A DNA stretch of 38,741 nt from positions 79,115 to 117,855 of the forward strand of contig JBLNDL010000025.1 in NCBI GenBank assembly GCA_050261575.1, in the 5' to 3' direction. The notes under the pieces are model-generated. The model did not search any database and was not told where the DNA came from. It worked only from the letters and a program-made list of their open reading frames with translations. Source of the stretch: Sphingomonadaceae bacterium (GTDB lineage Bacteria > Chloroflexota > UBA6077). Below are positions 3,702 through 26,858 of the stretch, one piece after another; position 1 is the stretch's first letter; each line of letters begins with the position of its first letter. The position numbers were made by a program, and so were the translations under genes.

Positions 3702-4716
3702 TATCTCCGTTCCTCGACTGACGAGCGACTCGCCGCTGCAGCATATCCACGAAAGCTTCCAGCCGCGTCACCAGGCCCGCCTCGGCCGTGTGCTCGTCGA
3801 TGGTGATGTTCATGAGGGGCTTGTTCCACCGCCGCTTCGCGGCCCGACTGACGATGTCCATCATGAGGGAATCGGGACCGCAACCGAAGGCCACGACGCT
3901 GATGATACCGTCTACCCCATCCATCAGGTAATAGCCTCCGGCCCCCACCACCTCGCGTTCGTAGGTGAAGTAAGGCCGCTCCACCAGCGCCGTTATGCCG
4001 CGATCCAGTCCCTCCAGCGAGACCATCTCCGGGGTGACCAGCTCGACGCCCATCGCCCGCAGCCGGCCAACCATGTTGTGGTTAACGTACTCGTCGTAGA
4101 TGTTGTAGGGATGGCCGATCATGGCGATGGTCAACCGCCGCCCCGCGGAGGACACGGTTCCCTTCCGATTGATTGCGGCTGGCCGATAGGGCTGATCGGG
4201 AAACAGTTGCTCGATGGCCTCCGGAGGGGTGAGGCCGCTCCTCATGATCTCCTGGTACCTCTTGTCCGTCTCCAGGGCGGCGTCGATCGCCCGATCGATC
4301 TTCCATGGCGCGCGGATCAATCGCTTGCCTACCCGATGGATCTCCTCCCGAACCTTGCGCACGCCCTTGTTGATGTCGATCTCGATGTCCACGACGGGGG
4401 CTATGTCCTTGGACGTCTGGCGCACCAGATCGGGCAGCCCCAGGAACTTGGAGCAGTTGTAGACGTTGCGCTCCACGCTTCTGACGCTCGGGATGAAGAT
4501 GAAGTCCACGTCCCGGCCGAGGGCGGCGCAGTGGCCACAGAAGATCTTCGTCGGAAGGCAGGTCTCCGCCACCACCCTGGAGGCGCCGGCGGAGAGGATG
4601 CCACGGGTCGTCGCGGGGGAGACCACAGTCTCCGCCCCCAACTCCTCGAAGAAGGTCCTCCAAAGGGGATAATGCTGGTAGTAAACCAGAGCGCGAGGGA
4701 TGCCAACCTTGATCAT
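3676..4716 (-). CDS. CoA-activase-related protein (DUF2229-type plus dehydratase-like C-terminus)
   Basis: Start reassigned to ATG 4716 (ATGA overlap with upstream stop). KVGIPRAL, ETCLPTKIFCGH, CSKFLGLPD, GHPYN, FGCGPDS, IDEHTAEAGLVTRLEAFVD. Confidence 0.88.
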   Translation of the reverse strand: MIKVGIPRALVYYQHYPLWRTFFEELGAETVVSPATTRGILSAGASRVVAETCLPTKIFCGHCAALGRDVDFIFIPSVRSVERNVYNCSKFLGLPDLVRQTSKDIAPVVDIEIDINKGVRKVREEIHRVGKRLIRAPWKIDRAIDAALETDKRYQEIMRSGLTPPEAIEQLFPDQPYRPAAINRKGTVSSAGRRLTIAMIGHPYNIYDEYVNHNMVGRLRAMGVELVTPEMVSLEGLDRGITALVERPYFTYEREVVGAGGYYLMDGVDGIISVVAFGCGPDSLMMDIVSRAAKRRWNKPLMNITIDEHTAEAGLVTRLEAFVDMLQRRVARQSRNGDSGAGLSGN

Positions 4717-5504
4717 CGTCTTTCTGCCACCAAGATCATTCTGGGGCTGGAGGCCTGGTAGCTCTCCAGGTCGTAGCCCCCGTAGAGGTCCCGCAGGCGG
4801 AAGCCCGCCTCCTCCAGCAGAAGCTCGGCCTCGTATCTGAAGAGCAGCCGAGTCTCCATCTGGAAACAGAAACGGGTCATCTCTCCGCCGGGGCCGGTCT
4901 GGTCGTAGAGCAGCACGGAAGTCTCCGACTGCGTCTCGAAATGGGTCGTTCGCGCCACGAACTTGCTCAGTTGATGCGGCCCGTCCGGGGACGGGTAGGG
5001 CGCCGTGAGCTGGTGCACCAGGGTGGAGTCCCCGGCGGCCAACCACTCCGGCGAGGGGTTCAACAGATCGATCACCAGTAGCCCCTTCGTCGCCAGGTGG
5101 CCCGCCAGTCGCTCGAGCGCCTTTCGCTGACCGTCCAACGTCAGCAGATGGTGGAAGGAACTGAGGGCAACGAGGGCCATGCCGTAGCGTTCGCCCAACT
5201 CCATGCTTCGCATGTCTCCTTGCACCAAGCGCACCCGCCGCACGAGTCGGGCCGCCTCCACTTTCGATCTAGCGATCTCCAGCATGGCGGACGAGGCGTC
5301 GACGCCAGTAACCGAGAACCCCTCCTTCGCGAGTGCGAGCGTCACCCTGCCGGTCCCGCAGGCCGCGTCGAGGATTGGGCCTGCACACGCAGTGGCGAGG
5401 CCGAGGTAGAGGGGGAGGTCGTCGCTGAAGTCACGGTGCTCCCAGTCGTAGAACCGCGCTACCCGATCGTACAGGGCAGCGGGATCCGATGCCCTAGCGT
5501 TCAC
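4713..5504 (-). CDS. Class I SAM-dependent methyltransferase
   Basis: ILDAACGTGR motif I, GVDASSAML, QGDMR. Confidence 0.9.
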   Translation of the reverse strand: MNARASDPAALYDRVARFYDWEHRDFSDDLPLYLGLATACAGPILDAACGTGRVTLALAKEGFSVTGVDASSAMLEIARSKVEAARLVRRVRLVQGDMRSMELGERYGMALVALSSFHHLLTLDGQRKALERLAGHLATKGLLVIDLLNPSPEWLAAGDSTLVHQLTAPYPSPDGPHQLSKFVARTTHFETQSETSVLLYDQTGPGGEMTRFCFQMETRLLFRYEAELLLEEAGFRLRDLYGGYDLESYQASSPRMILVAERR

Positions 5505-8895: not shown

Positions 8896-9540
8896 TCAGG
8901 CGCCGGCCCGGTCCATGTAGTCTACGACCGCCTTAGACATCAGGTAGATGATCGTCGCCCCGGGGTCCTGGTGTCCGACCGACCTCTCGGCCAGCCAACG
9001 GGACCTGCCGAAAGCGGATTTCATGCCGATGGTTGCGATCATCCCCTTTTCGGCTGCCTCCATAGCCAGCCGGGCAGCCTCCCTCGGTCCCAGCCCTCGC
9101 TCGACGGCCCTTTCCAAAGCGAGGCGGGCAGGCATCAAAGCATCCAGGATGGTCTTGTTGCCGGGTTCCGCCTTGCCCCGCTCCTTGATACCCTGCTCCG
9201 CGGCCGCCACCATCCGGGCGACGTCGGGCAGGGTGAGTTCGCTCTGCCCGATCACGACCTTGCCCGCCCGCATGAACGCCGTGCCTAGAAGAGCGCCGAT
9301 GGTGGCGCCCGCGGCCTCCCCGAAGTCCGTGCCGGACTTCATCAACAACCGACCGATGTCGGCGGGGTGCTCAGCGAGGCCATCTCGGAGTGCCTTGAAG
9401 CCCCTCGACGTGGAAATACCGATGTCGCCGTCACCTATCGCCGAGTCCAACTCTCCCAGCATATCCTTGGCCGCTTCGAGTTCGAGCGCCACAGCTTCGA
9501 GGACTGCAACAGTCCGTTCGAGGCTCACTTTATCTCCCAT
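8896..9540 (-). CDS. dhaL: Dihydroxyacetone kinase-family subunit L
   Basis: LDSAIGDGDIG, GKAEPGNKTILDAL, GRSRWLAERSVGHQDPGA; start set to ATG 9540. Confidence 0.9.
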   Translation of the reverse strand: MGDKVSLERTVAVLEAVALELEAAKDMLGELDSAIGDGDIGISTSRGFKALRDGLAEHPADIGRLLMKSGTDFGEAAGATIGALLGTAFMRAGKVVIGQSELTLPDVARMVAAAEQGIKERGKAEPGNKTILDALMPARLALERAVERGLGPREAARLAMEAAEKGMIATIGMKSAFGRSRWLAERSVGHQDPGATIIYLMSKAVVDYMDRAGA

Positions 9541-9585
9541 CTCTCCACCCCTCCGCAACGTCGACTGCCAAGCGCGGACCCATTC

Positions 9586-10587
9586 TCACCTCTGTACGAA
9601 GAAGGGGGACTCCGCCGGCGCATCCAGCAGCCTCTTCATCTCATCGTCCAGCTTCAGGAGGGATAGCGAGCATCCAGCCATCTCGAGGGAGGTAGCGAAT
9701 TCGCCCACGTAGGGTCGATGGATGGAGATGTCTCGCTCGCGAAGCAGCTCCCACACCTTGCGATAGACCACGTATAGCTCTTCGAGAGGAGTCGCCCCGA
9801 GCCCGTTCACGAGCACCGCTACCTCGTCACCAGCCTCGAATGGCAAGTCCTCGACGACGGCGGTGGTGAGTGCGGTGGCGATCGCATCGGCGGATTCGAG
9901 CCTGCCCCTCCGCACGCCCGGCTCGCCGTGAATCCCCATCCCGATCTCCATCTCGTCCTCGCCGATGGAGAAGGTCGCCCGCCCCATCTCGGGAACGGTA
10001 CACGGGGATAGCGCAACCCCCATGCTTCTGGTGTTGGCTATGGCCTTCTCTGCTGCGGCCTTGACTGCCTGCAGGTCGGCCCCCTCGTCGGCCTTCGCCC
10101 CGGCTATCTTGTAGGCAAAGAAGATGCCTGCCACGCCCCGGCGCGTCTGCCACCGCTCGCGCGGCGCCGATGCCACGTCATCGCAAGCGGTCACGATCTC
10201 GACAGGGATACCCTCCATCGTGGCCATTTCCGCCGCGGTGCCAAAGTGCATGCAGTCACCCTGGTAGTTGCCGAACAGGTAAAGGACGCCCGCCCCGCCA
10301 TCGATCGCGCGCGTCACCGCCAACATCTGCCCTGTTGATGGGGAGGAGAAGACGTTTCCCACGGCGACGCCGTCGGCCAGCCCCTTCCCCACATAACCGA
10401 GAAAGACCGGCAGGTGCCCGGAGCCTCCGCCGGTGGCGATGGCCACCTTCCCCCGCACGGGCGAATCAGCCCGAACGATGGCTCGCCCATCCTTTCCCAC
10501 TGCCCTAAGCTGGGGCTGGTGCGCCCTGAGGATTCCGTCCAACACCTCGTCCACGAACATGGTCGGGTCGTTGATGATCTTCTTCAT
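9586..10587 (-). CDS. dhaK: Dihydroxyacetone kinase-family subunit K
   Basis: MKKIIN, GGGSGH, GNVFSSP, GMGIHGEPG, NGLGATPLEEL, TSLEMAG. Confidence 0.93.
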   Translation of the reverse strand: MKKIINDPTMFVDEVLDGILRAHQPQLRAVGKDGRAIVRADSPVRGKVAIATGGGSGHLPVFLGYVGKGLADGVAVGNVFSSPSTGQMLAVTRAIDGGAGVLYLFGNYQGDCMHFGTAAEMATMEGIPVEIVTACDDVASAPRERWQTRRGVAGIFFAYKIAGAKADEGADLQAVKAAAEKAIANTRSMGVALSPCTVPEMGRATFSIGEDEMEIGMGIHGEPGVRRGRLESADAIATALTTAVVEDLPFEAGDEVAVLVNGLGATPLEELYVVYRKVWELLRERDISIHRPYVGEFATSLEMAGCSLSLLKLDDEMKRLLDAPAESPFFVQR

Positions 10588-10689
10588 CCTGACTCCACTC
10601 GCTTTTGTCGGGTCTATCGATCCGGTTTCGAACGCGCCGGCCTGGGAATGGTAGCCCTCGTCCGTCGACGCGGGCCAGCTTCCAAGGAG

Positions 10690-11928
10690 TCAGACGACTC
10701 CGTCCTCGTGCAGCCGCGCGAGTTCGTGGTCGGGGACACCGAGGATATCTCGCAGCACCTCGTCTGTGTGCTGACCCAGCAGCGGGGCCGGGGCAGGAAC
10801 CTGCTCCTCCACCCCCGACATCTTCAGTGGGTTGCCAGTCAGCATCAGATGTCCCTCGTTGGGGTCGTCGAACTCCTGAACCATCTTCCGAGCCCTGAGG
10901 TGCGGACACTCCATCAGTTCAGCCACGTTCTGCACCGGCGCGGATGGGAGGTCTGCTCCCAGGAAGGCATTCACCACTTCCGCTCGTGTCTTGTCCTTTG
11001 CCCACTCCTCCAGGATCGGCCGCAAGACCGAGTCGTACAGTCTGCCCCTGGCCGTGTCCGGGTTCAGCCTGGGATCGGTCCGCAGTTCGGGCCGACCGAT
11101 CAGGTTGCAGAGTCTGCCCCACATCTCGTCGCCCATCGTGGTCATCACCACGTACCCGTCTTTGACCTTGAAGGCCCCAAGCGGGTTCTCTCGCTTGTCG
11201 TCCCCGCGGGTTGGCGTCTCGCCGGTCAGGTAGCAGCGCAAGAGAGGCCGCTGCGCGAAGCTTGCAAGGCAGTCGTACATGGAGATGTCCACGTGCTGCC
11301 CCACGCCAGTCAAGTCCCTCATCCGCAGCGCCATTACCGTGCCCGACAGGGCAAAGACCGAGGCAACCAGGTCGCCCAGGGCGACCCCCGTCGGTATCGG
11401 CGGTCCACCCAACTCCCCGGTGATATCCATGATGCCGCTCATGGCCTGGGCCACTATGTTGAACGCGGGCCTATCGACGTAGGGGCCCGGGTAGATGTCG
11501 TCATGGCCGAATCCGCTGATAGAGGTGTACACCAGGGCAGGATTGATCTCTCGCAAGACCCGGTAGCTCAGCCCCAGCCGTTCCATGGTTCCCGGCGTGA
11601 AGTTCTCGATCACCACGTCGGAGACCTTCACCAGCTTCTTGAAGATCTCCTTCCCCTTCTCCGAGCGAAGGTCGATGGTGACTCCCTTCTTGCCTCGATG
11701 CACGTAGGCCACGGTATGCGCGACCTTGCGTCCGTCCTTCGCCACCAACAGGTGTCTTCGAGCCAACTCCCCAACCTTGGGGCGCTCGATCTTGATGACC
11801 TCGGCACCGTTCAGTGCCATTAGCAGCGTGCAGTAAGGTCCCGCCAGCACATGGCTCAAGTCCAGGACCCGAATCCCCTCCAGGGGTTGCTTTACAGAAT
11901 TGCTGATGGACATGAGGATCCGCTCCAT
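10690..11928 (-). CDS. Class III (CaiB/BaiF) CoA-transferase
   Basis: PLEGIRVLDLSHVLAGPYC, GAEVIKIE, DVVIENF, SISGFG, ALGD, APLLGQHT. Exact start uncertain. Confidence 0.93.
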   Translation of the reverse strand: MERILMSISNSVKQPLEGIRVLDLSHVLAGPYCTLLMALNGAEVIKIERPKVGELARRHLLVAKDGRKVAHTVAYVHRGKKGVTIDLRSEKGKEIFKKLVKVSDVVIENFTPGTMERLGLSYRVLREINPALVYTSISGFGHDDIYPGPYVDRPAFNIVAQAMSGIMDITGELGGPPIPTGVALGDLVASVFALSGTVMALRMRDLTGVGQHVDISMYDCLASFAQRPLLRCYLTGETPTRGDDKRENPLGAFKVKDGYVVMTTMGDEMWGRLCNLIGRPELRTDPRLNPDTARGRLYDSVLRPILEEWAKDKTRAEVVNAFLGADLPSAPVQNVAELMECPHLRARKMVQEFDDPNEGHLMLTGNPLKMSGVEEQVPAPAPLLGQHTDEVLRDILGVPDHELARLHEDGVV

Positions 11929-11958
11929 TGAGATTCCGCGGAGGTTGGTCGCGTGCCG

Positions 11959-12747
11959 CTAACACCCCTTCCACACGGGCTTGCGCTTCTCCCTGAACGC
12001 CCGTGGACCCTCTTGGCCGTCCTCGGTGAGACGCATCTCCGCCATATAGTGCTCCTCCAACTGCGCCAGCCCAGCCTCTGGCTGGAGGTACATCTGCATG
12101 ATCTCCTTGCTGCGCTGCACCGCGAGGGGCGACATCTCGCAAATCCGCTCGGCGATGCGGATCGCTTCTGGCAGCACCTCCTCACGGGGTACCACCCTGT
12201 TGACTAGGCCCACCTCGTATGCTCGCTGGGCGCTCATCCTCCCGCCCATGAACACGAGTTCCGCGGCTATCGGGTAGGGCAGCGCCTGGACGTATCTGAG
12301 CGCCCCGCCAACCTGACCGATATTCACGTGGAGATCGCCGATCCAGGCGGTCTCGGCCATCACCCTGATGTCGCAAGAGAGGGCGAGCGCCAGGCCACCA
12401 CCGACAGCGAAGCCATTGATCCCCGCCACGACCGGCTTCCGTATCCCGTAACGATGCAGGTGAGCCCCAAACTGCCCGTAGGTTGGACTGGCCGGATCGT
12501 ATCGCGGCACCAGCCTGCCCTGTGCCTGGTAGGCTGCCAACTCCTTCACGTCCCTGCCCGCGCAGAATGCTTCGCCGGTGCCTGTCAGGACCACCACCCA
12601 GACGTTCGCGTCCCCGCGCACGTCTCGCCAGACCTGATCCAGCTCTCCCTGCATTTGGTCGTCGTAGGCATTTCGAGCCTGCGGACGATTGAGCGTGACG
12701 AGGGCGAGGTGCCCTCGTTTCTCGTATATGACCGTCTCGAATCCCAT
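11959..12747 (-). CDS. Crotonase (enoyl-CoA hydratase/isomerase) superfamily protein
   Basis: TLNRPQARNA, AFCAGRDV, KPVVAGINGFAVGGG, EGPRAFREKRKPVWKG. Confidence 0.92.
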   Translation of the reverse strand: MGFETVIYEKRGHLALVTLNRPQARNAYDDQMQGELDQVWRDVRGDANVWVVVLTGTGEAFCAGRDVKELAAYQAQGRLVPRYDPASPTYGQFGAHLHRYGIRKPVVAGINGFAVGGGLALALSCDIRVMAETAWIGDLHVNIGQVGGALRYVQALPYPIAAELVFMGGRMSAQRAYEVGLVNRVVPREEVLPEAIRIAERICEMSPLAVQRSKEIMQMYLQPEAGLAQLEEHYMAEMRLTEDGQEGPRAFREKRKPVWKGC

Positions 12748-12847
12748 CGGAAAACCCCCGACCGACTTCTACTGAGCGCGGGCGGCGCTGCCTCGCGCTC
12801 CGTCTTGGCGGCGAACCCCCTCGTCTATGTCTGGTGCCGACGAAGCC

Positions 12848-13765
12848 TCAGGCTAGAATCCGCCCGCTGGCGGTGCCGACTGTGACCCGCTTACCAGCCT
12901 GGTTCTCGCACCACACATCGACGGTCACACGCAGGCCGCCATTCTCCTGGGTCATCTCCTTCACCTGCCCGCTGGCGTAGACCGTGTCACCAAGGAAGAC
13001 CGGAGAGACGAAGGCCACGGCGAGCTTGCCACCGTTCCTCCACCCCTCTCCACAGAAACGGGTCATCAACTCAGAGAGGTAGGCGAAGGACTGGAGCCCG
13101 GAGGCAACCGTGGTTGCGAGCCCGGCTGCTCGAGCCACGTCCGGATCGGTGTGGATGTTCTTCCACTCTGTCCCCGCGAACACCGTCATCTGCTCCTGAG
13201 TCATTACCTTGCGGATGGGCTTCAACTGGGCGCCAACGGCGAGATCGCGATCACCGACCTCCACCACGGGGCTGCCCACCATGGTCGGCACCTCCGCCAC
13301 CGCACCCTGAGACTGTTCCGCCTTGGCCACCCCCGGCTTGAGACCTCGCAGGTGAGTCGACCGCTGGCGCAGGATGAGGTTGCCCGCCTCATCCCTCACC
13401 AAGGACTCGAGGATGATGTACTGCTTGTCCCTCTTGATGTACTTGTCGATGTGGCTGCCGGTGATGATTACGCGCTGGCCCAACCTGGGAGACGAGAGGA
13501 ACTCGCACTCGTGCTTCGCGTGGAGCCCTGCCCCGCCGCTTGCGAGATCGTACGACGTCCTGATGACGTCTCTGGCTTCGCGGCACAGCAGCGGCGGGTG
13601 ACCGATTCTGCCCACGCCGGGAACGCCAACCATATACGCGGGATCGTAGTCGTCGACTGCGTAGGCAAAGCTCTTGATCATGTGGTCGGTGACCACTACC
13701 TCAATGGGGCCGAAGGTCTCGCCAACCTCCATCAGCTCCCATTTGCGTTCCTTCAGCTCTGCCAT
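12848..13765 (-). CDS. Double-hotdog MaoC-like dehydratase
   Basis: Start set to ATG 13765 (GGAGGA 7 nt upstream). Two hotdog repeats; NIHTDPDVARAAGL and FVSPVFLGD in the second. Confidence 0.82.
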   Translation of the reverse strand: MAELKERKWELMEVGETFGPIEVVVTDHMIKSFAYAVDDYDPAYMVGVPGVGRIGHPPLLCREARDVIRTSYDLASGGAGLHAKHECEFLSSPRLGQRVIITGSHIDKYIKRDKQYIILESLVRDEAGNLILRQRSTHLRGLKPGVAKAEQSQGAVAEVPTMVGSPVVEVGDRDLAVGAQLKPIRKVMTQEQMTVFAGTEWKNIHTDPDVARAAGLATTVASGLQSFAYLSELMTRFCGEGWRNGGKLAVAFVSPVFLGDTVYASGQVKEMTQENGGLRVTVDVWCENQAGKRVTVGTASGRILA

Positions 13766-13969
13766 CCCCATATCCTCCGAATCGCTTGCAGCTACACGCT
13801 GGCAAAGTGGATGTTGACCCTTCACGGACACGATGGGACCCCTAGGACTGAGTCGAAGCCTCTTCTGCCCTTGGTGCCCGGAGGGGCTCCCTGATTCCCC
13901 CATCGGGAAGTCAGATCCTCAACCCCAGGGGTCCCTATCGTGATGCGGGTAGCCTACCGTGAGGTCAGG

Positions 13970-15031
13970 CTACTTGCGGTTCTTCGCCAACTCCACCAGC
14001 TTGCCGGCGGTCGAATGCACTTCCTGAACATACTTTCGGTATTCCTCGCCACGGATCAGCTTTACTGGGAAACCCGCAGTCTGCATCTTCTCGACGTGGT
14101 CCGGAGACTCGATCACCTTGGCGAACACGTCTTCCAGCTTCTTCAGAACCGGTGCTGGCGTCCCTTTCGGAGCAGCCACGCCGCGGCTCGAAGCCATCAC
14201 GATGGATGGGTAGCCCAACTCGACAGTCGTCGGAACATCCGGAAGCTGCTTGACTCTCTCAGGGCTCAACACCGCCAGGACCTTCAGGTCCTTGCCCAGG
14301 GCCATGCTGGTGAAGGCGATATCGGTGTGCCCGCCACGGAACTGCGTCATCGTGCCGGCGCTCCCGTCGAAGTGAGCGATGCGGAACTTCGTTCCAACGG
14401 CTTCCTCGAACTGCAGCGCCGCCAAGTGCTCGGGGGTCAGGGCGCCGGAGGTGCCTACCCTGATCTCGCCAGGTCGCTTCTTGGCATCCTCGACCAGGTC
14501 GTTGAAGGTCTTGTACGGGCTCTCGTGCTTTACGGCCAGGATGATGGGGTCGTACACGTGGTTCACGATGAAGTCGAACGAGTCTAAGCTGAAGGTGGCC
14601 TTGCGCTCCGGCGAGAGCAGGATCGTGTTGACCGCTGGAAGGTTGACAAAACCGATGTAGTAGCCGTCGGGCTTCTGGGAAGCAAGTTCGGTTAGGCCGA
14701 CCTGAGATCCGGCGCCCTCTTTGTTCACCACCACCAGCGACTGGCCCAGTTCCTTTTCGGCGGCCGATGCCAGGATCCGCGCGCCTATGTCCGTGGTGCC
14801 TCCAGCAGCGAACGGGATCTGGAGGGTGACGGGCTTGGTGGGGTAATCGACCGAAGCGGGATTGGCGCCACCGGCGGGCACTGACGTCGGAGCCGCCCCT
14901 GCCGGCGACGCGGTCGAGGCAGGCGCCTTGGTCGGAGCCGCGGAGCCACCGCCGGGCGCCGCCGTACTGCACGCCACTGTGAGAACCGATGCCGCCATTG
15001 CGAGAAGACCGAGCCTTAGAGTGCGATTCAT
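13970..15031 (-). CDS. tctC: Tripartite tricarboxylate transporter substrate-binding lipoprotein (TctC/Bug)
   Basis: Start ATG 15031 after GGAGG; lipobox LTVAC; YPTKPVTLQIPFAAGGTTD, PDGY, LPDVPT. Confidence 0.93.
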   Translation of the reverse strand: MNRTLRLGLLAMAASVLTVACSTAAPGGGSAAPTKAPASTASPAGAAPTSVPAGGANPASVDYPTKPVTLQIPFAAGGTTDIGARILASAAEKELGQSLVVVNKEGAGSQVGLTELASQKPDGYYIGFVNLPAVNTILLSPERKATFSLDSFDFIVNHVYDPIILAVKHESPYKTFNDLVEDAKKRPGEIRVGTSGALTPEHLAALQFEEAVGTKFRIAHFDGSAGTMTQFRGGHTDIAFTSMALGKDLKVLAVLSPERVKQLPDVPTTVELGYPSIVMASSRGVAAPKGTPAPVLKKLEDVFAKVIESPDHVEKMQTAGFPVKLIRGEEYRKYVQEVHSTAGKLVELAKNRK

Positions 15032-15132
15032 GTTTCCTCCATACCTAGCTTGGCCCAAGATTCACCCCAGGACTAACGCAACTACATCCATTCCACAGGC
15101 GAAAGCCTATCTCCTCAACCACACCTCCCCTT

Positions 15133-16653
15133 TCATCGCGAGACCTCAGCCTCCGCCACCCCTCCCAGCAGGCGGCCCCGTGAGCGAGCCTTTCTGGCGA
15201 AGGAACTCACCAGGATGATGGCAGCCACAGCCAGGAGAGTGGCCGAAATGGGCGAAGTGAAGAACACGCTGAAGTCTCCACCGGACAGGTCGAGCGCCGA
15301 GCGAAGGGACTTCTCCAGCATCGGGCCGAGGATGAGTGCGAGAACGGCGGGCGCGAGTGGCCATCGCAGCTTGCGGCAGACATATCCCATCAACCCGAAG
15401 GAGAGCATCAGCCCCACATCGAACACACTCTGTTTCAGACTGTAGGCGCCTATGACGCAGAAGACGAGGATGCCGGGGTAGAGGTACTCGTATCTGATCT
15501 CCAGGAGCTTTGCCCAGAGACTCACGAGAGGCAGATTCAGGATCAGCAACATCACGTTGCCCACGTAGAAGCTGGCGATGACGCCCCAGACCACGTCGGC
15601 GTGCTCCTTGAAGAGGAAGGGGCCAGGCGTTATCCCGTTGATCATGAATGCCCCCATCAGCACCGCCAGGCTCGCCGTTCCGGGTATCCCCAACGTGAAC
15701 AACGGAACCATGGAGGCCTGAGCGTAGGCGTTGTTGGCGCTCTCCGGGCTTGCCACCCCCTCGATGACGCCAGTGCCGAACCGCTCTGGATGCTTGGACA
15801 CCCTCTTCTCCAGCACGTACGCGACGAAAGTGGGTATGATGCCGGCGATGCCGGGGATGAGCCCCAGGAAGAAACCCACAACCGTCCCTCGCCCGATCGC
15901 CCTGGAGGCGCGCCCCCACTCCTCACGGCTTGGAAACAGGTTGGAAAGGCTGGTCTTCACGACCTGCTGGTTGGGGTTCTCGAGGCTCGCCAGGAGTTCG
16001 CCCACCCCGAAGAGGCCCATCACCATGGGGACGAGCCCGACTCCGTCGTACAGCTCGGGAATGCCGAAGGTAAAGCGAGGCAGGCCATGCAGCGGGTCTA
16101 TACCGATCATCGAGAGGGCGAGCCCGAAGACGGTCATGAGCAGGGCGGCCGGCAGTGAACTGCCCCCTAGGGCAGTCACCAGGGTCAGCCCCGCCAACAG
16201 GAGAGAGAACATCTCAGGGGGGCCGAACCGGAGTGCGAAGCTGGCGAGGGGCAGGGCCATTACCATCAGCGCGAGGGTGCCGAAGGTACCTCCGACGAAC
16301 GATCCGATGGAGGCGATGCCCAACGCCGTACCCCCCCTGCCCTGCTTGGCCATCTGGAAACCGTCCAGGCAAGTGACCACCGAGGTGGACTCACCGGGCA
16401 CGTTGACGAGCACGGAGGTGATCGTCCCGCCGTACTGGGTACCGTAGTAGAGTGCCGAGATCATGATGATCGCCGGCGTAGGTTCGAGGTTGAAGGTGAT
16501 CGGGATCAGGATCGCCATCGCGGCAGCGGGGCCGAGTCCCGGCAGTACACCCACGACCGTGCCCAGAAGACAGCCCACGAACGCGAAGAGAAGGTTGGTG
16601 GGCGACATGGCCACGGCGAACCCCTGAATCCACTGCTGAACAGCTTGGTCCAC
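15133..16653 (-). CDS. tctA: Tripartite tricarboxylate transporter large permease
   Basis: GVLPGLG, YGGTITSVLVNVPG, GVASPESANNA, LGIPG. Confidence 0.95.
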   Translation of the reverse strand: MDQAVQQWIQGFAVAMSPTNLLFAFVGCLLGTVVGVLPGLGPAAAMAILIPITFNLEPTPAIIMISALYYGTQYGGTITSVLVNVPGESTSVVTCLDGFQMAKQGRGGTALGIASIGSFVGGTFGTLALMVMALPLASFALRFGPPEMFSLLLAGLTLVTALGGSSLPAALLMTVFGLALSMIGIDPLHGLPRFTFGIPELYDGVGLVPMVMGLFGVGELLASLENPNQQVVKTSLSNLFPSREEWGRASRAIGRGTVVGFFLGLIPGIAGIIPTFVAYVLEKRVSKHPERFGTGVIEGVASPESANNAYAQASMVPLFTLGIPGTASLAVLMGAFMINGITPGPFLFKEHADVVWGVIASFYVGNVMLLILNLPLVSLWAKLLEIRYEYLYPGILVFCVIGAYSLKQSVFDVGLMLSFGLMGYVCRKLRWPLAPAVLALILGPMLEKSLRSALDLSGGDFSVFFTSPISATLLAVAAIILVSSFARKARSRGRLLGGVAEAEVSR

Positions 16654-16663
16654 AGTCGCCTCC

Positions 16664-17125
16664 TCAGATACCCAGCAGTCCTATCGGTAGTGGCACCTGG
16701 AGCCAGTAGTAGAAGACGTGAAAGACCCCAAAGCTCCCTACGAGGGCGAAGACGAAGGTCACGACCCATTTCCGGACCCCGAGAGCGGCGGGCAAGAAGA
16801 GTAGGAACAGCACTAGCGTGATGCGGAAGCCCAGGACGTTGAGGAGGAGGATCACCGCGACGAGAGACCCTACCACCGACAGCACCCGGAGTCCTCCGGC
16901 TAGATCCGGAAGAAGAGGCTCCTCGGCGACGGGGGCGGTCCTGGCAAGACTCACCTGGACGAATAGACCCGCAGCCAACACGGCCAAGATGATCCCCAGC
17001 CACGCGGGGAAGAAACCCGCGCCCGGACCGGCGGAATCGAAGAAGGGATAATCCAGGGCACTCACCAGCACGAAGACCCCGAGGAGCACGCATGCGAGAC
17101 TCGCTGCCTGCCAAGCCCGTTTCAC
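16664..17125 (-). CDS. tctB: Tripartite tricarboxylate transporter small subunit
   Basis: GTG 17125 after AAGGAGGT; GPGAGFFP, LGF, VPLPIG. Confidence 0.88.
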   Translation of the reverse strand: MKRAWQAASLACVLLGVFVLVSALDYPFFDSAGPGAGFFPAWLGIILAVLAAGLFVQVSLARTAPVAEEPLLPDLAGGLRVLSVVGSLVAVILLLNVLGFRITLVLFLLFLPAALGVRKWVVTFVFALVGSFGVFHVFYYWLQVPLPIGLLGI

Positions 17126-17154
17126 TGGCCACCTCCTTGAGATATGGCGTTGGG

Positions 17155-17196
17155 AATATAGCACCGCCTACCCAAAAGCCGATTGCCTGGGTAGGC
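17155..17196 (-). promoter_or_regulatory. Putative tctB promoter with inverted-repeat operator
   Basis: Extended -10 TG-C-TATATT (17163-17155); GCCTACCCA(17166-17174)-N13-TGGGTAGGC(17188-17196) brackets the expected -35. Confidence 0.5.
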
Positions 17197-17286
17197 AACA
17201 ACACCGTCCGGAACCGTCTGTGGCGTCGGTGCGGAGGATGCAGCAGGATTGGTGGGGAATCTGGCCCCTGGGGCAGATCCAGCGAG

Positions 17287-19242
17287 TCAGCTCGCTCGCA
17301 TGAGGTGAGGGATGAGGTCTCGGTAAAGACGTCCCTGGCGATAGACCAGCCGGAAGTACTCCTCTCCCGCCATCAGCTTGAGTCCGAATCCCGCATTTGC
17401 CATTCTCTGGACATGCTCGGGACTCTCCATAGACGAACGAAAGACGCTCTCCAGCTTCCGCGCTATCTCTTTGGGGACGCCCCTAGGAGCTGCTATACCT
17501 CTGGTGGAGGCCATCATGAGAGTGGGGTAGCCTAGCTCCGCCGTCGTTGGCACCTCCGGCAGCAGGTCGAACCGCTCTTTAGTATAGACGGCGAGCACTC
17601 GCAGCTTGCCGGTTCTGACGGCAGGAAGGGTGATTCCCGGGGTGAAGAAGGCAACGTCCGTCTCGCCCCCGAAGAAGCGCGCGATGTGCGAAGCGCTGCC
17701 CTCGTAGTGGACGAAGCGGAAGCGGATGTCGGCCACCTTTTCCAGCAACAGCGCTCCGAGGTGGGCAGGCGTGAGCGGGCCAGAGGTACCGACGGTGATC
17801 TGTTCTGGACGGCGTTTCGCATCCTCGATGAGCTCTTGCAGGCTCTTGTACGGACTTTCTGGTCTGACGAACACCGCAGTGGGATCGTAGACCTGGTTGA
17901 TGATAAAGGTGAACGAATCCAGGCCGAACGGTGGCTTCTGTCCGGGTGAGAGGATCTTGGAGTTGAAGGCCGGCAGGTTGACGAAGCCCAGATGATAGCC
18001 GTCAGGCTCCTGCGCGGCGAGTTCGGCTAACCCCACCTGGGAGCAGGCCCCCTCTCGGTTCACGACGACGATCGGCTGTCCCAGCTCCTTCTCGGCGATC
18101 GACGCCACGATGCGCGCGCCGAAGTCCGTCGTGCCGCCGACAGGCCAAGGCACCATGAGGGTAATCGGGCGGCTGGGGAAGTCAACCGCACCACCGGTTC
18201 GCACGGCGGTGCAGGCTGTCTGGCTGTCTCGTCCGGCCAGCGCCTTCGGTCCGACTTCGGAGGAAGAGGTACTCCACCGACGCAGGCCGTCTCCCAGGAC
18301 GCCCATCATTCGCCGCGTTCGGTCTCCGATCGGCATCAAGTGAACGAGGCTGAACCTATCGTCGGCAGCGAGTCGCGCCTGCCAAAGGTGGACGGTGTAG
18401 GGTCCTATCTCGGGGTGATCGACCTTAAGCAACTGGTGGTCGAGCGACTCGGGTTCCATCGGCCCGACTCGATTGCTCCTTGGATCCTTCCAGATCGCCA
18501 GCAGGTGCCCGTCGGACAGCACTTCTTTCATCAACGACCGATACTGAGGGGAGTGCTGCCAATAGCGCAACACGGAGCGGAAGAGTGCTACCTCGCGTCG
18601 GGCGAAGCTGTCGTAATTCTCGATCACCTGCCGCAACCACCACCCGATCGGATGATCGAGAGACAGCAGTTGCACGCACCTCAAGCCTCGGGCTTCGTCG
18701 AGGAATGCCTCACGCCGGGGGTATCCGAAGAAGGCGTAAGCCATCAAGTCGTTCAGATCCCAGAACCGCTGCTCTTGGTCCACGAGGGCAACGGGGTATT
18801 GGGCCGACTGGAGAAACGGTCTTGCAAGGCGGACAGCGGCATCCACCTCCGCGGGACTTGGCGATGGCGGGGGCGCCAGGTAGCCGGCCACGCTCAGCAG
18901 CCGGCACCGGTCCTCCCAGGGGAGTTCGAGGGCATCGCAGATGCGCTGCAGAGTCTCGCAGGTCGGCAACTGGTGCCCGCGCTCGATGCGGTTGATGTGA
19001 GACTTGTCGCTCCCTATCGCAACAGCCAGATCCTCCTGGGCCCAGGGCCTGCCGTTGTGTATCTGGCGTCGGCTCAACCGCAACGCCCGAATCCATTCCC
19101 CCAACTGTCTTTGGTGGGAGAGCTTCCAATAGCGCCAGTCGCGCTCCGGGATGTCTTCTGGCACCGATGGCGCCAAGACTTCACGCAGTTCGGACTTGAG
19201 GCCCATGACTTCTGGATGCGTGGCAGGATGCAGACAGTCCAT
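17287..19242 (-). CDS. XRE-HTH/MmyB-like regulator fused to a C-terminal TctC/Bug domain
   Basis: WAQEDLAVAIGSDKSHINRIERG HTH; YPVALVD...WDLN PAS-like region and DHPEIG; Bug domain from about 18186. Start may be 19206. Confidence 0.85.
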   Translation of the reverse strand: MDCLHPATHPEVMGLKSELREVLAPSVPEDIPERDWRYWKLSHQRQLGEWIRALRLSRRQIHNGRPWAQEDLAVAIGSDKSHINRIERGHQLPTCETLQRICDALELPWEDRCRLLSVAGYLAPPPSPSPAEVDAAVRLARPFLQSAQYPVALVDQEQRFWDLNDLMAYAFFGYPRREAFLDEARGLRCVQLLSLDHPIGWWLRQVIENYDSFARREVALFRSVLRYWQHSPQYRSLMKEVLSDGHLLAIWKDPRSNRVGPMEPESLDHQLLKVDHPEIGPYTVHLWQARLAADDRFSLVHLMPIGDRTRRMMGVLGDGLRRWSTSSSEVGPKALAGRDSQTACTAVRTGGAVDFPSRPITLMVPWPVGGTTDFGARIVASIAEKELGQPIVVVNREGACSQVGLAELAAQEPDGYHLGFVNLPAFNSKILSPGQKPPFGLDSFTFIINQVYDPTAVFVRPESPYKSLQELIEDAKRRPEQITVGTSGPLTPAHLGALLLEKVADIRFRFVHYEGSASHIARFFGGETDVAFFTPGITLPAVRTGKLRVLAVYTKERFDLLPEVPTTAELGYPTLMMASTRGIAAPRGVPKEIARKLESVFRSSMESPEHVQRMANAGFGLKLMAGEEYFRLVYRQGRLYRDLIPHLMRAS

Positions 19243-19403
19243 AGGAGTGCCTTATAGAATCGACTTCATTATCCCACAGCGGATTGGGCGAGCCAAGCCC
19301 GCGGTCGAACCCGCGGTCTTCGGGGACACCACCGCACCGGGCAAGGGACGAAAGACGGCGCCGAGCCCTGAGATCGGGCCCGGCGCACGGATTCCTCGCT
19401 CCG

Positions 19404-22128: not shown

Positions 22129-23277
22129 TCAAGGTGCAGTCGTGACCCGGAGGAATTCGTCGTAGCTCCCTGCGGAGGAGATCCTCCACACGAACTCGCC
22201 CACGGACGGACTGGCGGCCCGCAGGCGGCGCAACCGGTCTCCGATGTCGTCCCCAACGGCTCCGCCGACAGGCATCTCGTCGGAGTAGCTGCCATGGAAG
22301 GCGAAGTACGCCTGGTTCAGCTTCCGCAGTTGATAGCCCTCCTGTTCCAGGCTTTGCCTGGCGCTCTCCATGAAGCTCTCCGCCTCGTCCACTTTCCCAT
22401 CCGCAAGCAGCGAGTCAACCATCCTCCGCACCTCCCTCATGAACGCCCTGAAGGAATCCTGTTGGGACGCCGGACGAGGCTGCTCAGGGACTCTTCCCCT
22501 GTAGTACCGACGGTACACCTCGTCGCCCACCTCGCGCCCCAGGATTTCGGCAGCGGTCTCGTTCACGACTACCATCTGCTCGTCCCCCTCCGCACCGAGG
22601 GCGTACTTCCAGCCGAGGGGTCTAAGTGCGAAGAACTGGTGCGCCCACTCGTGGGCCACGGTTCGCAGCGTCCAACCGACCTCGGAGCCTTTCGGCACCA
22701 TGCTTGGGTAGATACCCAGCCCACCAATGGGCGTGACCAGCGCCGAGAAGCCGTCCCTGGAGACCGCTTCTTCCAGACCCTCGGCGTCGGCGAGGCTGAT
22801 CTCGGGACGCAGCAAGACGGTGGAGAGCCGCTCGATCCTTTCACGGGGCGACACGACGAGCAGCTTAGGGGGAGCCTCGAAACGGAACAGTACGGGAGGA
22901 AAGAGCAGGTCGGCGCCCAGCACCCGCAGGCCCAACCCCTGCCCCACCAGCGCTTCGCCCACCTGCTGCTGGATCAGCAACTCCACCCCGGGCTCGAGAG
23001 CCTCCAACTCCAACGGGTGAGACGCCAGACCAGCAGCGGGCCGCCCGGTCACCGAGAAGTAGTCCACCGCCCCCTCTACGGTAGCGGGTGTGCCGGTCAC
23101 CGCCTGGTACGCCTTCGCCACGGCGTTCTCCACCATCCAGCCTGCCACAGTCTCCGAGTTGGACGCTGCCTTACGGGTGAAATGGTAGGAGGGTGAGGAT
23201 GGGGTGGCGGCAGACAAGCCCAGCAGCAGCGGGAGCGCCGCTATCGCCAGTAGCTTCGGCAGCCAGCTTCTAGCCAT
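22129..23277 (-). CDS. Exported putative zinc metallopeptidase (gluzincin-like)
   Basis: Signal-like N-terminus; AHEWAH followed by NETAA; LNQAYFAFHGSY. Confidence 0.7.
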   Translation of the reverse strand: MARSWLPKLLAIAALPLLLGLSAATPSSPSYHFTRKAASNSETVAGWMVENAVAKAYQAVTGTPATVEGAVDYFSVTGRPAAGLASHPLELEALEPGVELLIQQQVGEALVGQGLGLRVLGADLLFPPVLFRFEAPPKLLVVSPRERIERLSTVLLRPEISLADAEGLEEAVSRDGFSALVTPIGGLGIYPSMVPKGSEVGWTLRTVAHEWAHQFFALRPLGWKYALGAEGDEQMVVVNETAAEILGREVGDEVYRRYYRGRVPEQPRPASQQDSFRAFMREVRRMVDSLLADGKVDEAESFMESARQSLEQEGYQLRKLNQAYFAFHGSYSDEMPVGGAVGDDIGDRLRRLRAASPSVGEFVWRISSAGSYDEFLRVTTAP

Positions 23278-23446
23278 GGAGAGAACACCGTTCCGGCAAG
23301 GAATCCCTGGCGGCGACCATTCTACGGGTGGCTGTTACGGTTTTGCAACGTCTTCGCTTCCCCTTTTTATGCGACTGCAACGGCCCGCATGGTACCTTCC
23401 TCGCGCCGCGAGCACCAATGTCAAAGAGGACGTGGGGCGAGGAGCG

Positions 23447-23842
23447 ATGGAGCACTTCGAAGCAGCGGCAAAGCGCGGCGGCCTCAAGGTGCTGGTAGCC
23501 GAAGAGGATGCGCGACTGCGTCGCATAGTTCGTTTGAACCTGGAGCGAGAAGGGTTCGAGAGCCTGGAGGCCACGTCCCTATCGGAGTGCCAGGCTGCCC
23601 TGCAGAAGCACGAAATCGCGTTGGTCATCGTCAGTTCCCAGTTGCCTGGGTTCGATGCCGGCGAATTCTCGGCCTGGCTTCGTTCTCATTTCCCGTCGAA
23701 CCCCATTCCCGTGGTCATCCTCTCTTTCGAACCGGAAGACAGGTTGCTGGCTCTGAGATTGAGGATTGCCACGTTCTGGCTGAAGCCGTTCGATCCTGGC
23801 GAGTTGATAGGGCAGGTGTCGCGGCTGCTACAGACAGCCTAA
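23447..23842 (+). CDS. Stand-alone atypical receiver-domain protein
   Basis: ATG 23447 after GAGGAG; KVLVAEED, IPVVILS, KPFDP; Ser at the phosphoacceptor position. Confidence 0.8.
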   Translation: MEHFEAAAKRGGLKVLVAEEDARLRRIVRLNLEREGFESLEATSLSECQAALQKHEIALVIVSSQLPGFDAGEFSAWLRSHFPSNPIPVVILSFEPEDRLLALRLRIATFWLKPFDPGELIGQVSRLLQTA

Positions 23843-23991: not shown

Positions 23992-24705
23992 TCAGGCTGT
24001 CGAGACATCCTCCTCGTCCGCCAGCACGTAGCCGACGCCGGGCACCGTCCGCAGGAACCTCGGGCGGGATGGATCCTCCTCGATCTTCCGACGGAGCCGA
24101 CTGACCCAGACCCGCAGGTACTCAACGTCGTCCCTGTACTCTGGACCCCAGGTGCGCACCAGCAGGTCCTCATGCAGCATCACCTTTCCGGCGTTGAGCG
24201 CCAACTGCTGCAGAAGCTGCCACTCCGTGCGGCTCATCTGCACCTCTTTTCCATCCACCACCACCTTGCGGCGTTCGAAGTCCACCACCAGGCCCGCCAC
24301 CGTGAACCGCGCGCGGCTGGCCTTCGCGCCGCTGGCGGCGGCCGTCCGTCTCAGGACAGCCCTCACTCTCGCCGACAGTTCATCGGGACTGAACGGCTTG
24401 GTCAGGTAGTCGTCGGCCCCCAGGTCGAGCCCTCGCACCTTGTCGGCATCGCTCCCCCTGGCAGTCAGCAGTATCACCGGCACAGACGATCGCTCGCGGA
24501 TTCGCTGAAGCAGTTGAAACCCATCCAGGCCCGGCATTATCACGTCCAACACCACCAGGTCTGGCGTCTCGGTCTCCAGCATCCCTTGTGCCGAAAACCC
24601 GTCCGGCGCGGTGAGCACCCGGAACCCGGCAGCTTCCAGTTCTGCCCTCACGAATCGCAGGATGCGGGGCTCGTCGTCGACCACCAACACGGTCTGCTTT
24701 CTCAC
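23992..24705 (-). CDS. OmpR/KdpE-like response regulator
   Basis: [53 protein letters not shown]. Confidence 0.95.
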
Positions 24706-26858
24706 CTAGCCTCCTCCACCAACGGCAGCGTAAAAGCGAACGTGGACCCGCACCCCGGCTCGGACTCCACCCAGATCCTCCCCCCGTGGGCCTCGACCAG
24801 GCGGCGACAGATGGCGAGCCCCAGACCTACACCTCCCGTCTGCCCAACCCGAGCGTCGGAAGCCCGCTGGAATCGGTCGAAGACCCGCGCCTGGTCCTGG
24901 CTGGAGATGCCGATCCCGTGGTCCTCCACCACCACCATCACCATCTCCTCGGCCACCCTCCCCGAGAGCGATATCTCTCCTCCTTGCGGGGAGTACTTCA
25001 CCGCGTTGTCCAAGAGGTTCCTCAGCACCTGCTCCACCCGTAGGGGATCCGCCTCGGCGGGAGGCAACGATGCCGGGAAGTCCAGCCGGAACCGATGGGA
25101 GGGGGCACGCGCCTCGACCTCCGCCACTACCCGCGCGGCCAGCTTGCCGACCTGAACCGGCTCCGTCGTGAGCCGCAGCGCCCCGGCCTCCGCCCTGGAG
25201 AAGTCCAGGAGGTTCTCCACCAGCCGGTAGAGCCGGTCCGCCTCCTCGTCCACGTCTTGCACCAACTCCATCCGCGTCTTCTCATCCAAAGTGGAATAGT
25301 GACGCAAGAGGGTTCGCGCAGCCCCTTTGATGGAGGTCAGGGGAGTCCTCAACTCGTGGGACACTAGGGAGACGAACTCGTCCTTCAGTTGCTCGGCCTC
25401 CTTCACCTTGGTGATGTCCTGGAAGACCACGACCGCCCCGGACACCCGTCCCTCCAGATCCCGGAAGGGGGCGCTGTTCACGAGGACCGGAACCTTCCTT
25501 CCATCCGGACGGTGGATAACGACCTCCACTCCAAGGCATACCTCGCCATGTCTGATGGAACGGCTGAGCGGAAGCTGTTCCCAGGAATAGAGGGCGCCAT
25601 CCGGGGTGTGCAGCCCCAGGGAGGAGGCTTCGTCCTCCGGCGCGATGTCCCATATTCTCTCGATCCCCAGCAACTCCATTCCGGCTCTGTTGATCGTGGA
25701 TATCTTGCCCTCGCCGCCTTCGGCGATGATCACCCCCTCGGGCATGCTGTCGATGATCACCTGCAGGAACCGGCGGCCGGCCTCGGCCCTGAGTCGCTGC
25801 GACACCGCTTCCTCGTAGAGCCGCGCGTTTTGAATGGCGATCGTGGCCTGCTTGGCGAAGGCCATCAGCAACTGCGCGTCCTCCTGCCGGAAGCGAACCT
25901 TGCTCCTGTTGCCGATGTATAGAATCCCGAGCAGGTCGGTGCCGTTGCTGAGTGGCACCCCGATCTCCGAGATCAGGCCCTCCTTTCGAACGGCATCCAT
26001 CGGTGGATCCTTGAAGATGACCTCCCGAGGGTAGTCGTCCACGATGATCGGCTCCCCGCGCTTCACCACCACGCCCGCCAGTCCCTGCTCGCGGCCAAGG
26101 CGGAGTCGGCGCATAGCCTCCGTCCGGAGTCCTTCCGATGCCACCATCTCCACTTCCTGCCCATCTTCCGATAGGAGGCCCAGGAAGCTGGTGTCGCTAC
26201 CCAGCAGCTCCCTGGCCTTGTGCACGATCGAGTTGAGGATCTCGGACAGGGCTAGGTTGGCGGAGATGTCCCTCCCGATTTCGAACAGAGCCGTGACCTG
26301 AGCCGCGCGCCGCTCGGAGGCAGCGTACAGGCGCGCGTTCTCCATGGCGGTGGCAGCCTGGTTGGCGAGCCCCTGGATCAGCCTCATCTCCTTCGGGGAG
26401 GGACCGCTAACAGGTCCAAGCCACCCGGCGGCCAGCACTCCCAGGGCCACTCCTCGGAACAGCAGGGGAACGGCGAGCGCAGAGGATGCCCCGACCTGCT
26501 TCGCGAGCCGCGACGGTGGCTGCTCGCGCTCGACCTCCCCTACCCATACCGGCTTACGAGTTCGCAGGGCCCTCGCCAGGAAGGGGTTATCCACCAGGGG
26601 CAACCTGGACCCCTCCAGCAGCACCAGTGGGCGGTGCCCCTCCCCGGCCCCCGCCACCAGCACCAGTTCCCCCTCGTCATCCTCCGCCAGCTCGGCCACG
26701 ACGACCCAATCCGCCGCAGCAATCCGCAGGAACTGATAGGCCAGCGTGCCGAGCACCTGGTCCCGCTCGAGCGTGGAGTTCAGCAGGCCGGCAACCTCGA
26801 GGAGCATCTCGGCCTGGAAGGTCCACCGTCCACCGTCGCCTTCGGATCGAAAGCCCAC
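24702..26858 (-). CDS. Cytoplasmic GAF-GAF-PAS histidine kinase
   Basis: Two GAF-type ends ([16 protein letters not shown]), [28 protein letters not shown]; 4-nt overlap with the regulator. Confidence 0.94.

Follow-up and report, generated by a model that had tools for sequence, protein, structure and literature searches.

A rare XRE-MmyB-TctC fusion protein encoded beside a tripartite tricarboxylate transporter operon

A three-domain regulator gene and its relatives

We analyzed a 38,741-nucleotide stretch of DNA (contig JBLNDL010000025.1, positions 79,115 to 117,855, of assembly GCA_050261575.1, GTDB lineage Chloroflexota; hereafter the window), in which one minus-strand gene encodes a 651-residue protein that joins an XRE-type helix-turn-helix (HTH), an MmyB-like PAS-like domain and a complete TctC/Bug domain, the last belonging to the substrate-binding proteins of tripartite tricarboxylate transporters (TTT). 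Next to it lie the transporter genes tctB, tctA and tctC, followed by a set of catabolic genes (Table 1). The regulator frame opens with ATG and contains no internal stop; the gene caller's version, which begins at residue 27, has 625 residues, and the alignment with relatives sets in at about residue 44.

The HTH was recognized by Pfam HTH_3 (34.5 bits against a cut-off of 23, residues 68-109) and HTH_31 (32.7 bits against 27, residues 46-112), which places it in the XRE family, and it carries a motif, RPW.QEDLAVAIGSDK.H.NR.E.G.Q, that is near-invariant in the alignment of the fused family. The middle domain scored 18.2 bits with Pfam MLTR_LBD (PF17765, residues 148-311), under the cut-off of 26.3; with the same model the Devosia orthologue reached 27.1 bits and stand-alone relatives 27.7-41.1 bits. 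A profile built from 10 fused proteins matched the structure of MltR (PDB 3pxp) across both the HTH and the ligand-binding domain (LBD) at E 1.5e-12 (profile positions 28-249), and an AlphaFold2 model of the window protein (mean pLDDT 73.6) matched 3pxp_B in Foldseek at E 1.6e-13 and TMt 0.55. The assignment of the middle domain as MmyB-like is secure at the family level. The TctC domain scored 162.4 bits with Pfam PF03401 (cut-off 27) over residues 376-636, covering profile positions 2-261 of 274, and is thus complete; the C-terminal part of the model matched the closed TctC structures 2dvz, 5oei and 7nds with TMt 0.83-0.85. The linker of about 30 residues is variable in length and unconserved in sequence among relatives, and residues 325-354 are predicted to be disordered (pLDDT <50). 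A complex prediction between the N-terminal module of HTH and MmyB-like domain (N-module, residues 40-325) and the TctC domain (residues 352-651) scored 0.00, which has no bearing either way.

Neither a signal peptide nor a membrane segment was found in the 651 residues by 19-residue hydropathy windows, the highest Kyte-Doolittle mean being 1.09, compared with 1.86 at the lipoprotein signal of the neighboring TctC. Of 13 other fused proteins, 11 had a maximum below 1.6, and the remaining two (1.69 and 1.71) peaked in globular segments, while the operon TctCs carry N-terminal signals at 1.86-2.27. The regulator therefore lacks the export signal of TTT substrate-binding proteins and has an HTH at its N terminus; it is predicted to be cytoplasmic, and a cytoplasmic DNA-binding protein is not expected to deliver substrate to TctA/TctB. 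Pfam, profile and hydropathy results thus bear out the preliminary description of this DNA, which had reported these three domains in one frame without a signal peptide and had proposed a cytoplasmic location.

A fusion of this kind might be an artefact, produced either by an error in sequencing or assembly that merged a regulator gene with an adjacent second tctC or by a recent, pseudogene-like event. Suspicion could come only from the low Pfam score of the MmyB-like domain and the unconserved linker, and it is countered by about 18 distinct proteins (41-65% identity) that share the same uninterrupted architecture and come from isolates (Phytohabitans, Devosia and Falsiroseomonas) as well as metagenomes, with no stop or frameshift between regulator and tctC. 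In a protein search, HTH and TctC occurred together in 10 of 16 matches including the query, the other nine being 608-640 residues long and 42-65% identical. Phytohabitans kaempferiae and Devosia enhydra each hold one full-length orthologue (two of four loci found; the other two match in the HTH alone), and the metagenome contigs L016 and L018, among five loci found, one each; P0017, P0018, P0019, P0166 (Falsiroseomonas sp.) and P0167 show the same three domains. The lone apparently stand-alone member of the fused clade, P0021 (340 residues), has its first residue within the final MmyB-domain strand and is therefore a truncated fusion. Finally, the preliminary description had asked for reads across 18180-18330, and Logan contigs of runs X3 (17841-19400) and X4 (17000-18909), which belong to further samples of what may be the source study, cross this junction with no gap or indel, a synonymous C>T at 18187 being their sole difference; run X5, of a second study, leaves 18187-18607 uncovered. 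An artefactual origin is accordingly very improbable.

The regulator-TctC family is rare. Representatives of 1.84 billion protein clusters were searched, and among the best 150 matches the fused architecture made up four clusters (P0001, which is the protein itself, P0017, P0018 and P0019), stand-alone two-domain relatives of the N-module 10 (246-338 residues, 36-61% identity) and tandem TctC-TctC proteins five. No N-module orthologue was found in 40 genomes that share family, order or class with the source genome, where the best match (G037, an unpublished genome that was counted) reached E 2.5e-9 over residues 43-168. Of 400 further genomes drawn from the phylum, none had the fused form; one matched the N-module at E <= 1e-20 (33% identical), and its frame of 320 residues makes it a stand-alone form. 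A search for longer TctC proteins, in which the 8000 candidates sharing most words were scored, returned the same HTH and TctC combination in six of six matches, which is weak evidence against fusions of TctC to other DNA-binding domains. The literature search found no published account of an XRE-MmyB-TctC fusion or of a cytoplasmic, DNA-linked TctC domain, in agreement with the earlier statement that no characterized fusion was known, and in these searches the architecture did not turn out to be an already common, described family. Public records call the Phytohabitans (P0004) and Falsiroseomonas (P0166) fusions [quoted passage not shown], a name that misleads since these proteins have an N-terminal HTH and lack an export signal, and the error will inflate counts of TTT binding proteins.

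Origin of the fused domain and inheritance of the operon

The fused domain and the neighboring TctC are identical at 166 of 296 positions (56%, E 7e-115, BLASTP), and the 45 identities among the first 64 aligned residues, counted by hand in the preliminary description, were exact on recount. When the source genome (3.72 Mb, 103 contigs) was scanned, 19 other TctC-like frames were found, of which the neighbor was closest to the fused domain (57% identical) and the next best 41% identical. In a maximum-likelihood tree of 40 TctC domains (IQ-TREE, LG+G4), all 18 fused domains formed one clade (support 100/100), four operon TctCs together with P0024 formed another (100/97), and the two were sisters (99/95); eight other paralogues of the source genome all fell outside both. 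Branching ran in parallel in the two clades, with the window first, Phytohabitans next, then Devosia and L016. In the tree of the N-module, one branch with moderate support (74/83, present in 73% of bootstrap trees) separates the 15 fused rows.

Together, these results point to a single old duplication of the operon's own tctC with fusion to the regulator, inherited with the whole gene cluster, an inheritance that, as read from the sequences compared, spans at least two named phyla plus this genome. The two nearest long matches of a 1054-residue protein encoded in the window come from Chloroflexota metagenome-assembled genomes (62% and 51% identity), which makes Chloroflexota the probable phylum of the source. 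The idea that the transporter's binding protein was duplicated hence stands as a statement of descent and fails as one of a local or recent event. The fused and exported domains of one genome are most alike in the window (53.7% identity), followed by Phytohabitans (42.5%), Devosia (34.5%) and L016 (33.6%). The GC content is flat at 62-68% across the window, and base composition gave no sign of recent horizontal transfer there.

The preliminary description had also suggested that SQTACTA in the linker might be the remnant of a lipobox, the signal peptide of the exported TctC ending in LTVAC before a tether rich in Pro, Ala, Gly and Ser. The motif is present, but its likeness to the neighbor is at chance level: linker and neighbor N terminus scored 29, compared with 24.2 ± 4.6 for shuffled sequences, 82 of 500 of which scored as high, and the local DNA score of 11 matched the 10.6 ± 1.8 expected by chance. 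BLASTP, moreover, paired the linker ACTA with residue 56 of the neighbor and not with its lipobox. We therefore reject the lipobox reading.

The window, Phytohabitans and L016 share the gene order tctB-tctA-tctC-MaoC-ECH-CoA-transferase III-DhaK-DhaL; the regulator gene comes first in the window and last in the other two, and the Devosia and L018 clusters lack DhaKL. The co-inherited catabolic set was located at 8896-13903 (minus strand) in the window, 2146-6866 in L001, 5278-9883 in L016 and 3887-6809 in L002. No NCBIfam equivalog scored above cut-off among the operon proteins except for DhaL; the types nearest to the CoA-transferase are those for mesaconate, glutarate and oxalate, all below cut-off, with succinyl-CoA:mesaconate CoA-transferase the nearest (322 bits, cut-off 700). 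A literature search for this gene set returned nothing relevant. The MaoC-ECH-CoA-transferase(-DhaKL) set resembles a CoA-dependent pathway, so far undescribed, that acts on a small carboxylic acid.

Table 1. Features of the window discussed in the text
Feature	Position	Strand	Remarks
DhaL	8896-9558	-	
DhaK	9586-10587	-	
Family III CoA-transferase	10690-11928	-	
Crotonase/ECH	11959-12747	-	
MaoC-like hydratase	12848-13903	-	
Exported TctC lipoprotein	13970-15058	-	sister paralogue of the fused domain
tctA	15133-16653	-	Pfam TctA, 535 bits
tctB	16664-17125	-	likely start GTG 17125
Extended -10-like element of the tctB promoter	17155-17163	-	TGCTATATT; read from sequence
Second inverted repeat	17166-17196	.	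GCCTACCCA-N13-TGGGTAGGC; perfect 9-nt arms; overlaps the palindrome
Candidate operator	17182-17199	-	GTTGCCTACCCAGGCAAT; imperfect 8-2-8 palindrome, 18 nt, upstream of tctB
Three-domain regulator gene	17287-19242	-	651 residues
TctC/Bug domain	17290-18180	-	residues 355-651; motif PWPVGGTTD, loop GTSGPLTPAH
Linker	18181-18267	-	about residues 326-354; contains SQTACTA (residues 339-345)
MmyB-like (MltR-type) PAS-like domain	18268-18855	-	about residues 130-325; profile, Foldseek, Pfam
XRE-type HTH	18907-19107	-	residues 46-112; Pfam HTH_3/HTH_31 and family alignment
Promoter-like site of the regulator gene	19268-19296	-	TTGGCT-17-GATAAT with TG
Terminator-like hairpin after the upstream HD-domain gene	19358-19386	-	parts the regulator from the HD-domain gene

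The tctB promoter and a candidate operator

A palindrome of the type GTTGCCTA-CC-TAGGCAAC stands upstream of tctB in all four readable promoters, namely those of the window, L016, Devosia and Phytohabitans. Their alignment holds 13 invariant columns among the 18 of the core, and the flanks cannot be aligned. In the window, the copy with its flank reads TGTTGCCTACCCAGGCAAT (17200-17182, minus strand); the Phytohabitans copy, AGTTGCCTACCTAGGCAAC, found after the other three, is a perfect 8-2-8 palindrome. On this basis, we regard the conserved 18-nt palindrome as a candidate operator. No second exact match to the window palindrome occurs in the window or elsewhere in the source genome, for which the counts were one exact match (tctB), none with one mismatch and 13 with two, and 108 sites in all with up to three mismatches, compared with 78 for a reversed control. 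At the same tolerance, nine sites matched in the Phytohabitans genome, including the one immediately before tctB. Again with up to three mismatches, the regulator's own promoter region contained no copy, and the scan of the source genome gave no clear second regulon target.

The likely start of tctB is GTG 17125 rather than 17164, where the mechanical reading frame begins, as this GTG lies five nucleotides behind AAGGAGGT (17138-17131) and coincides with the start of the alignment of the Phytohabitans TctB. The tctB promoter has no good -35 hexamer. Elements resembling TGCTATATT occur in the other loci also, and a simple promoter scan did not call the one in the window. With the transcription start predicted from this element, the center of the window dyad would lie about 42 nt upstream (near -42). 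The second inverted repeat, which occurs only in this genome, reaches the promoter spacer, so that operator and -10-like element have a third half-site between them. Half-site centers are about 10 bp apart, as modeled for the MltR dimer in part of PMC3406030.

Signal, rival accounts and known systems

Columns of the fused clade (18 sequences) were compared with those of the operon clade (five sequences), and 33 were invariant and identical in both. They include P365, G369, G370, T372 and D373 of the motif P-F-x-A-G-G-x-x-D, given for TTT binding proteins in part of PMC8556258. The window regulator has PWPVGGTTD; all 18 fused sequences keep P, G, G and D and have W in place of F, and the A position varies among V, A, S and T. 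The neighboring TctC has the exact motif (PFAAGGTTD). A loop, T486-S487-G488...T491-P492-x-H494, is shared by both clades and mostly not by the 17 other TctCs in the alignment. Pocket residues have been named for Bug27 (PMC11452294, in part), and in our reading of the hidden Markov model alignment T372, S487 and S516 correspond to its Thr22, Cys136 and Cys165; Bug27 Phe12 and Asn228 did not match the index count and were not used. Given the invariant, shared loop residues and the few fixed differences, the fused domain looks ligand-competent, with a specificity related but not necessarily identical to that of its exported sister.

The account we favor, and consider probable overall, is that of a one-component regulator whose TctC domain serves as the sensor and which controls the operon through the palindrome. 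A pre-existing two-domain MmyB-like regulator gained, in one old event, a duplicate of tctC, whose export signal was lost, to give a protein of XRE HTH and MmyB/MltR-type PAS-like domain with the TctC domain on a flexible tether. This protein would bind as a dimer to the 18-nt palindrome upstream of the tctB promoter and control the tctBAC-MaoC-ECH-CoA-transferase(-DhaKL) operon, and the signal would be the imported carboxylic acid or a close derivative, held in the Venus-flytrap cleft of the fused domain. A shared ligand is the simplest explanation because the fusion is strictly co-inherited with this one transporter, and the TctC domain may bind the imported substrate itself. As to the sign of control, we lean slightly toward ligand-dependent activation over repression, because the dyad is predicted to lie near -42 and because in the published model for MltR/MmyB, as set out in part of PMC3406030, a dimer reads a palindrome or pseudopalindrome and ligand promotes binding. 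The second, overlapping inverted repeat, which reaches the spacer, would suit repression.

Several observations weigh against the favored account. Four columns are fixed to different residues in the fused and operon clades (W366/F, L418/I, A493/E and R522/Q); three of these positions, W366, A493 and R522, lie in the pocket region and differ consistently from the exported clade, and A493 corresponds, by the same alignment reading, to Bug27 Gln142, a second-shell pocket residue (PMC11452294, in part). The fused domain was less conserved than the exported TctC in six of six genome pairs (e.g., 55.7% vs. 80.4%), and since it evolves faster and identity within the pair falls to 34%, they may by now differ in what they bind. 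The exact palindrome pattern matched 51 times in the collection of genome contigs, about the expectation for uniform composition, so that it has no predictive power alone; among these matches only the known Devosia site lay beside TTT genes, and no new members emerged. The -10-like element follows the palindrome at a distance that differs among loci (17 to 21 nt), and the AlphaFold2 model, with a pTM of 0.47, gives the inter-domain packing without confidence. Lastly, stand-alone relatives of the N-module (about 290-340 residues, 36-46% identity) have a complete sensor domain, and the TctC domain is therefore not needed for a working regulator.

Some of these points would also fit a protein with the same operator whose TctC domain senses another molecule, for example an intermediate or the end product of the pathway, or works jointly with a second signal that the PAS-like domain binds. 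The consistent clade differences at W366, A493 and R522 and the faster evolution of the fused domain agree with this, as does the MmyB-like domain, which in the family alignment is as conserved as the remainder of the protein, with many invariant residues between 150 and 304; yet the carboxylate-anchoring loops and the unusual TSG..TP loop are invariant and shared with the operon TctC, and co-inheritance with one transporter is strict, and we hold this reading to be rather unlikely. A TctC domain that binds no ligand at all and serves as an oligomerization, stabilizing or partner-docking module, leaving the PAS-like domain as sole sensor, would accord with relatives that work with two domains, with the long, disordered tether and with a divergence faster than in the exported paralogue. 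In a degenerate domain, however, one would not expect the ligand-loop residues to stay unchanged in all 18 sequences, which come from several phyla, and the model keeps a complete two-lobe fold (TMt 0.83-0.85, as above), which makes a ligand-free module quite improbable. Within the favored account of a TctC sensor, we also entertain, as a doubtful extension, a two-input switch, in line with the two ligand inputs raised in the preliminary description, in which the free imported acid would be read by the TctC domain and a second molecule, e.g., a CoA-activated or downstream intermediate, by the PAS-like domain. If true, the operon would be tuned to uptake and pathway flux together, and the protein would be the first intracellular TctC-family sensor and a ready-made scaffold for carboxylate biosensors.

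Like the MmyB-like regulators MltR of Chloroflexus aurantiacus (3pxp) and MmyB of Streptomyces coelicolor, the fusion has an N-terminal XRE HTH followed by a PAS-like LBD. The known members, however, consist of these two domains (about 290 residues), with nothing after the LBD, and are linked to fatty-acid or secondary metabolism, whereas a third, solute-binding domain of about 300 residues follows the LBD in all fused members, which accompany a carboxylate transporter and catabolic operon; the fused family is therefore a three-domain offshoot of the MmyB-like regulators. With the TctC/Bug proteins BugD, BugE, Bug27, AdpC, MatC, TphC and BctC, the fused domain shares fold, family and the motifs of the carboxylate-binding loops. 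The characterized proteins are all exported and free-standing, and even BctC, which passes ligand information into regulation through the kinase BctE (PMC8050422 and PMC9602780, each in part), acts from the periplasm through a membrane kinase. The fused domain, in contrast, has no signal, is predicted to be cytoplasmic, is covalently joined to a DNA-binding protein, and differs in the F-to-W change of its motif and in the fixed changes at 493 and 522.

The recruitment of binding-protein folds into LacI and LysR regulators is textbook knowledge, with the donor there long lost. RbsR, for instance, is homologous to RbsB and its gene is the last of the rbs operon, a position that the regulator gene also takes in Phytohabitans, Devosia and L016. 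LacI/GalR (and LysR) regulators resemble the fusion in using a binding-protein fold as the effector domain for the matching uptake or catabolic operon (PMC6079105, in part). They have the logic in common and not the family: Pfam matches in the regulator included no LacI- or LysR-type HTH and no Peripla_BP or LysR_substrate family, the effector domain being TctC instead of Peripla_BP_1/3 or the LysR substrate domain, the HTH XRE, and an extra PAS-like domain lying between the two. The fusion differs, too, in that its donor paralogue is still recognizable as a sister gene in the same operon, and for this reason the path from exported binding protein to presumed cytoplasmic sensor can be compared residue by residue, from signal loss through F to W, E to A and Q to R to faster evolution. 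If the favored account holds, TctC would join the binding-protein families used as intracellular sensor domains, in an unusual series with two potential sensor modules behind one HTH. The predicted operator and regulon, with culturable hosts in Devosia enhydra ATCC 23634 and Phytohabitans kaempferiae, could offer a route to the substrate of an orphan TTT transporter and its CoA-dependent pathway, and the fusion may be a natural template for the chimeric biosensors of periplasmic binding protein and DNA-binding domain, which until now have been engineered (PMC6079105, in part).

Some further observations concern relatives of the two parts of the protein. On L015 (1-2759), a stand-alone N-module relative (325 residues, 45% identity) adjoins genes for a TRAP DctP binding protein (divergently oriented), an enolase-superfamily protein and a 2-hydroxyacid dehydrogenase, and this subfamily of MmyB-like regulators may have a general role in controlling the uptake of organic acids. 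Another stand-alone relative is placed between luciferase-like monooxygenases. Among the TctC proteins, P0022, P0034, P0076 and P0079 are TctC-TctC tandems, P0102 is a TctC-TctB fusion, and P0165 is an odd fusion of two TctC domains with a retropepsin-like aspartyl protease domain. The source genome, probably of a Chloroflexota bacterium, has about 20 TctC-like frames in 3.7 Mb; in discussions of large TctC expansions, Bordetella and Comamonas are the usual examples.

Elsewhere in the window, a BcrAD/BadFG-type ATPase gene adjoins a DUF2229 "CoA enzyme activase" gene (2745-5046, minus strand), near a 2-hydroxyacid dehydrogenase gene (1214-2173) and a gene of the Asp/Glu racemase family (382-1209). 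A GAF-GAF-PAS histidine kinase (718 residues) and an OmpR-type response regulator are encoded at 23992-26858 on the minus strand, and an orphan receiver-domain gene lies at 23204-23842 on the plus strand.

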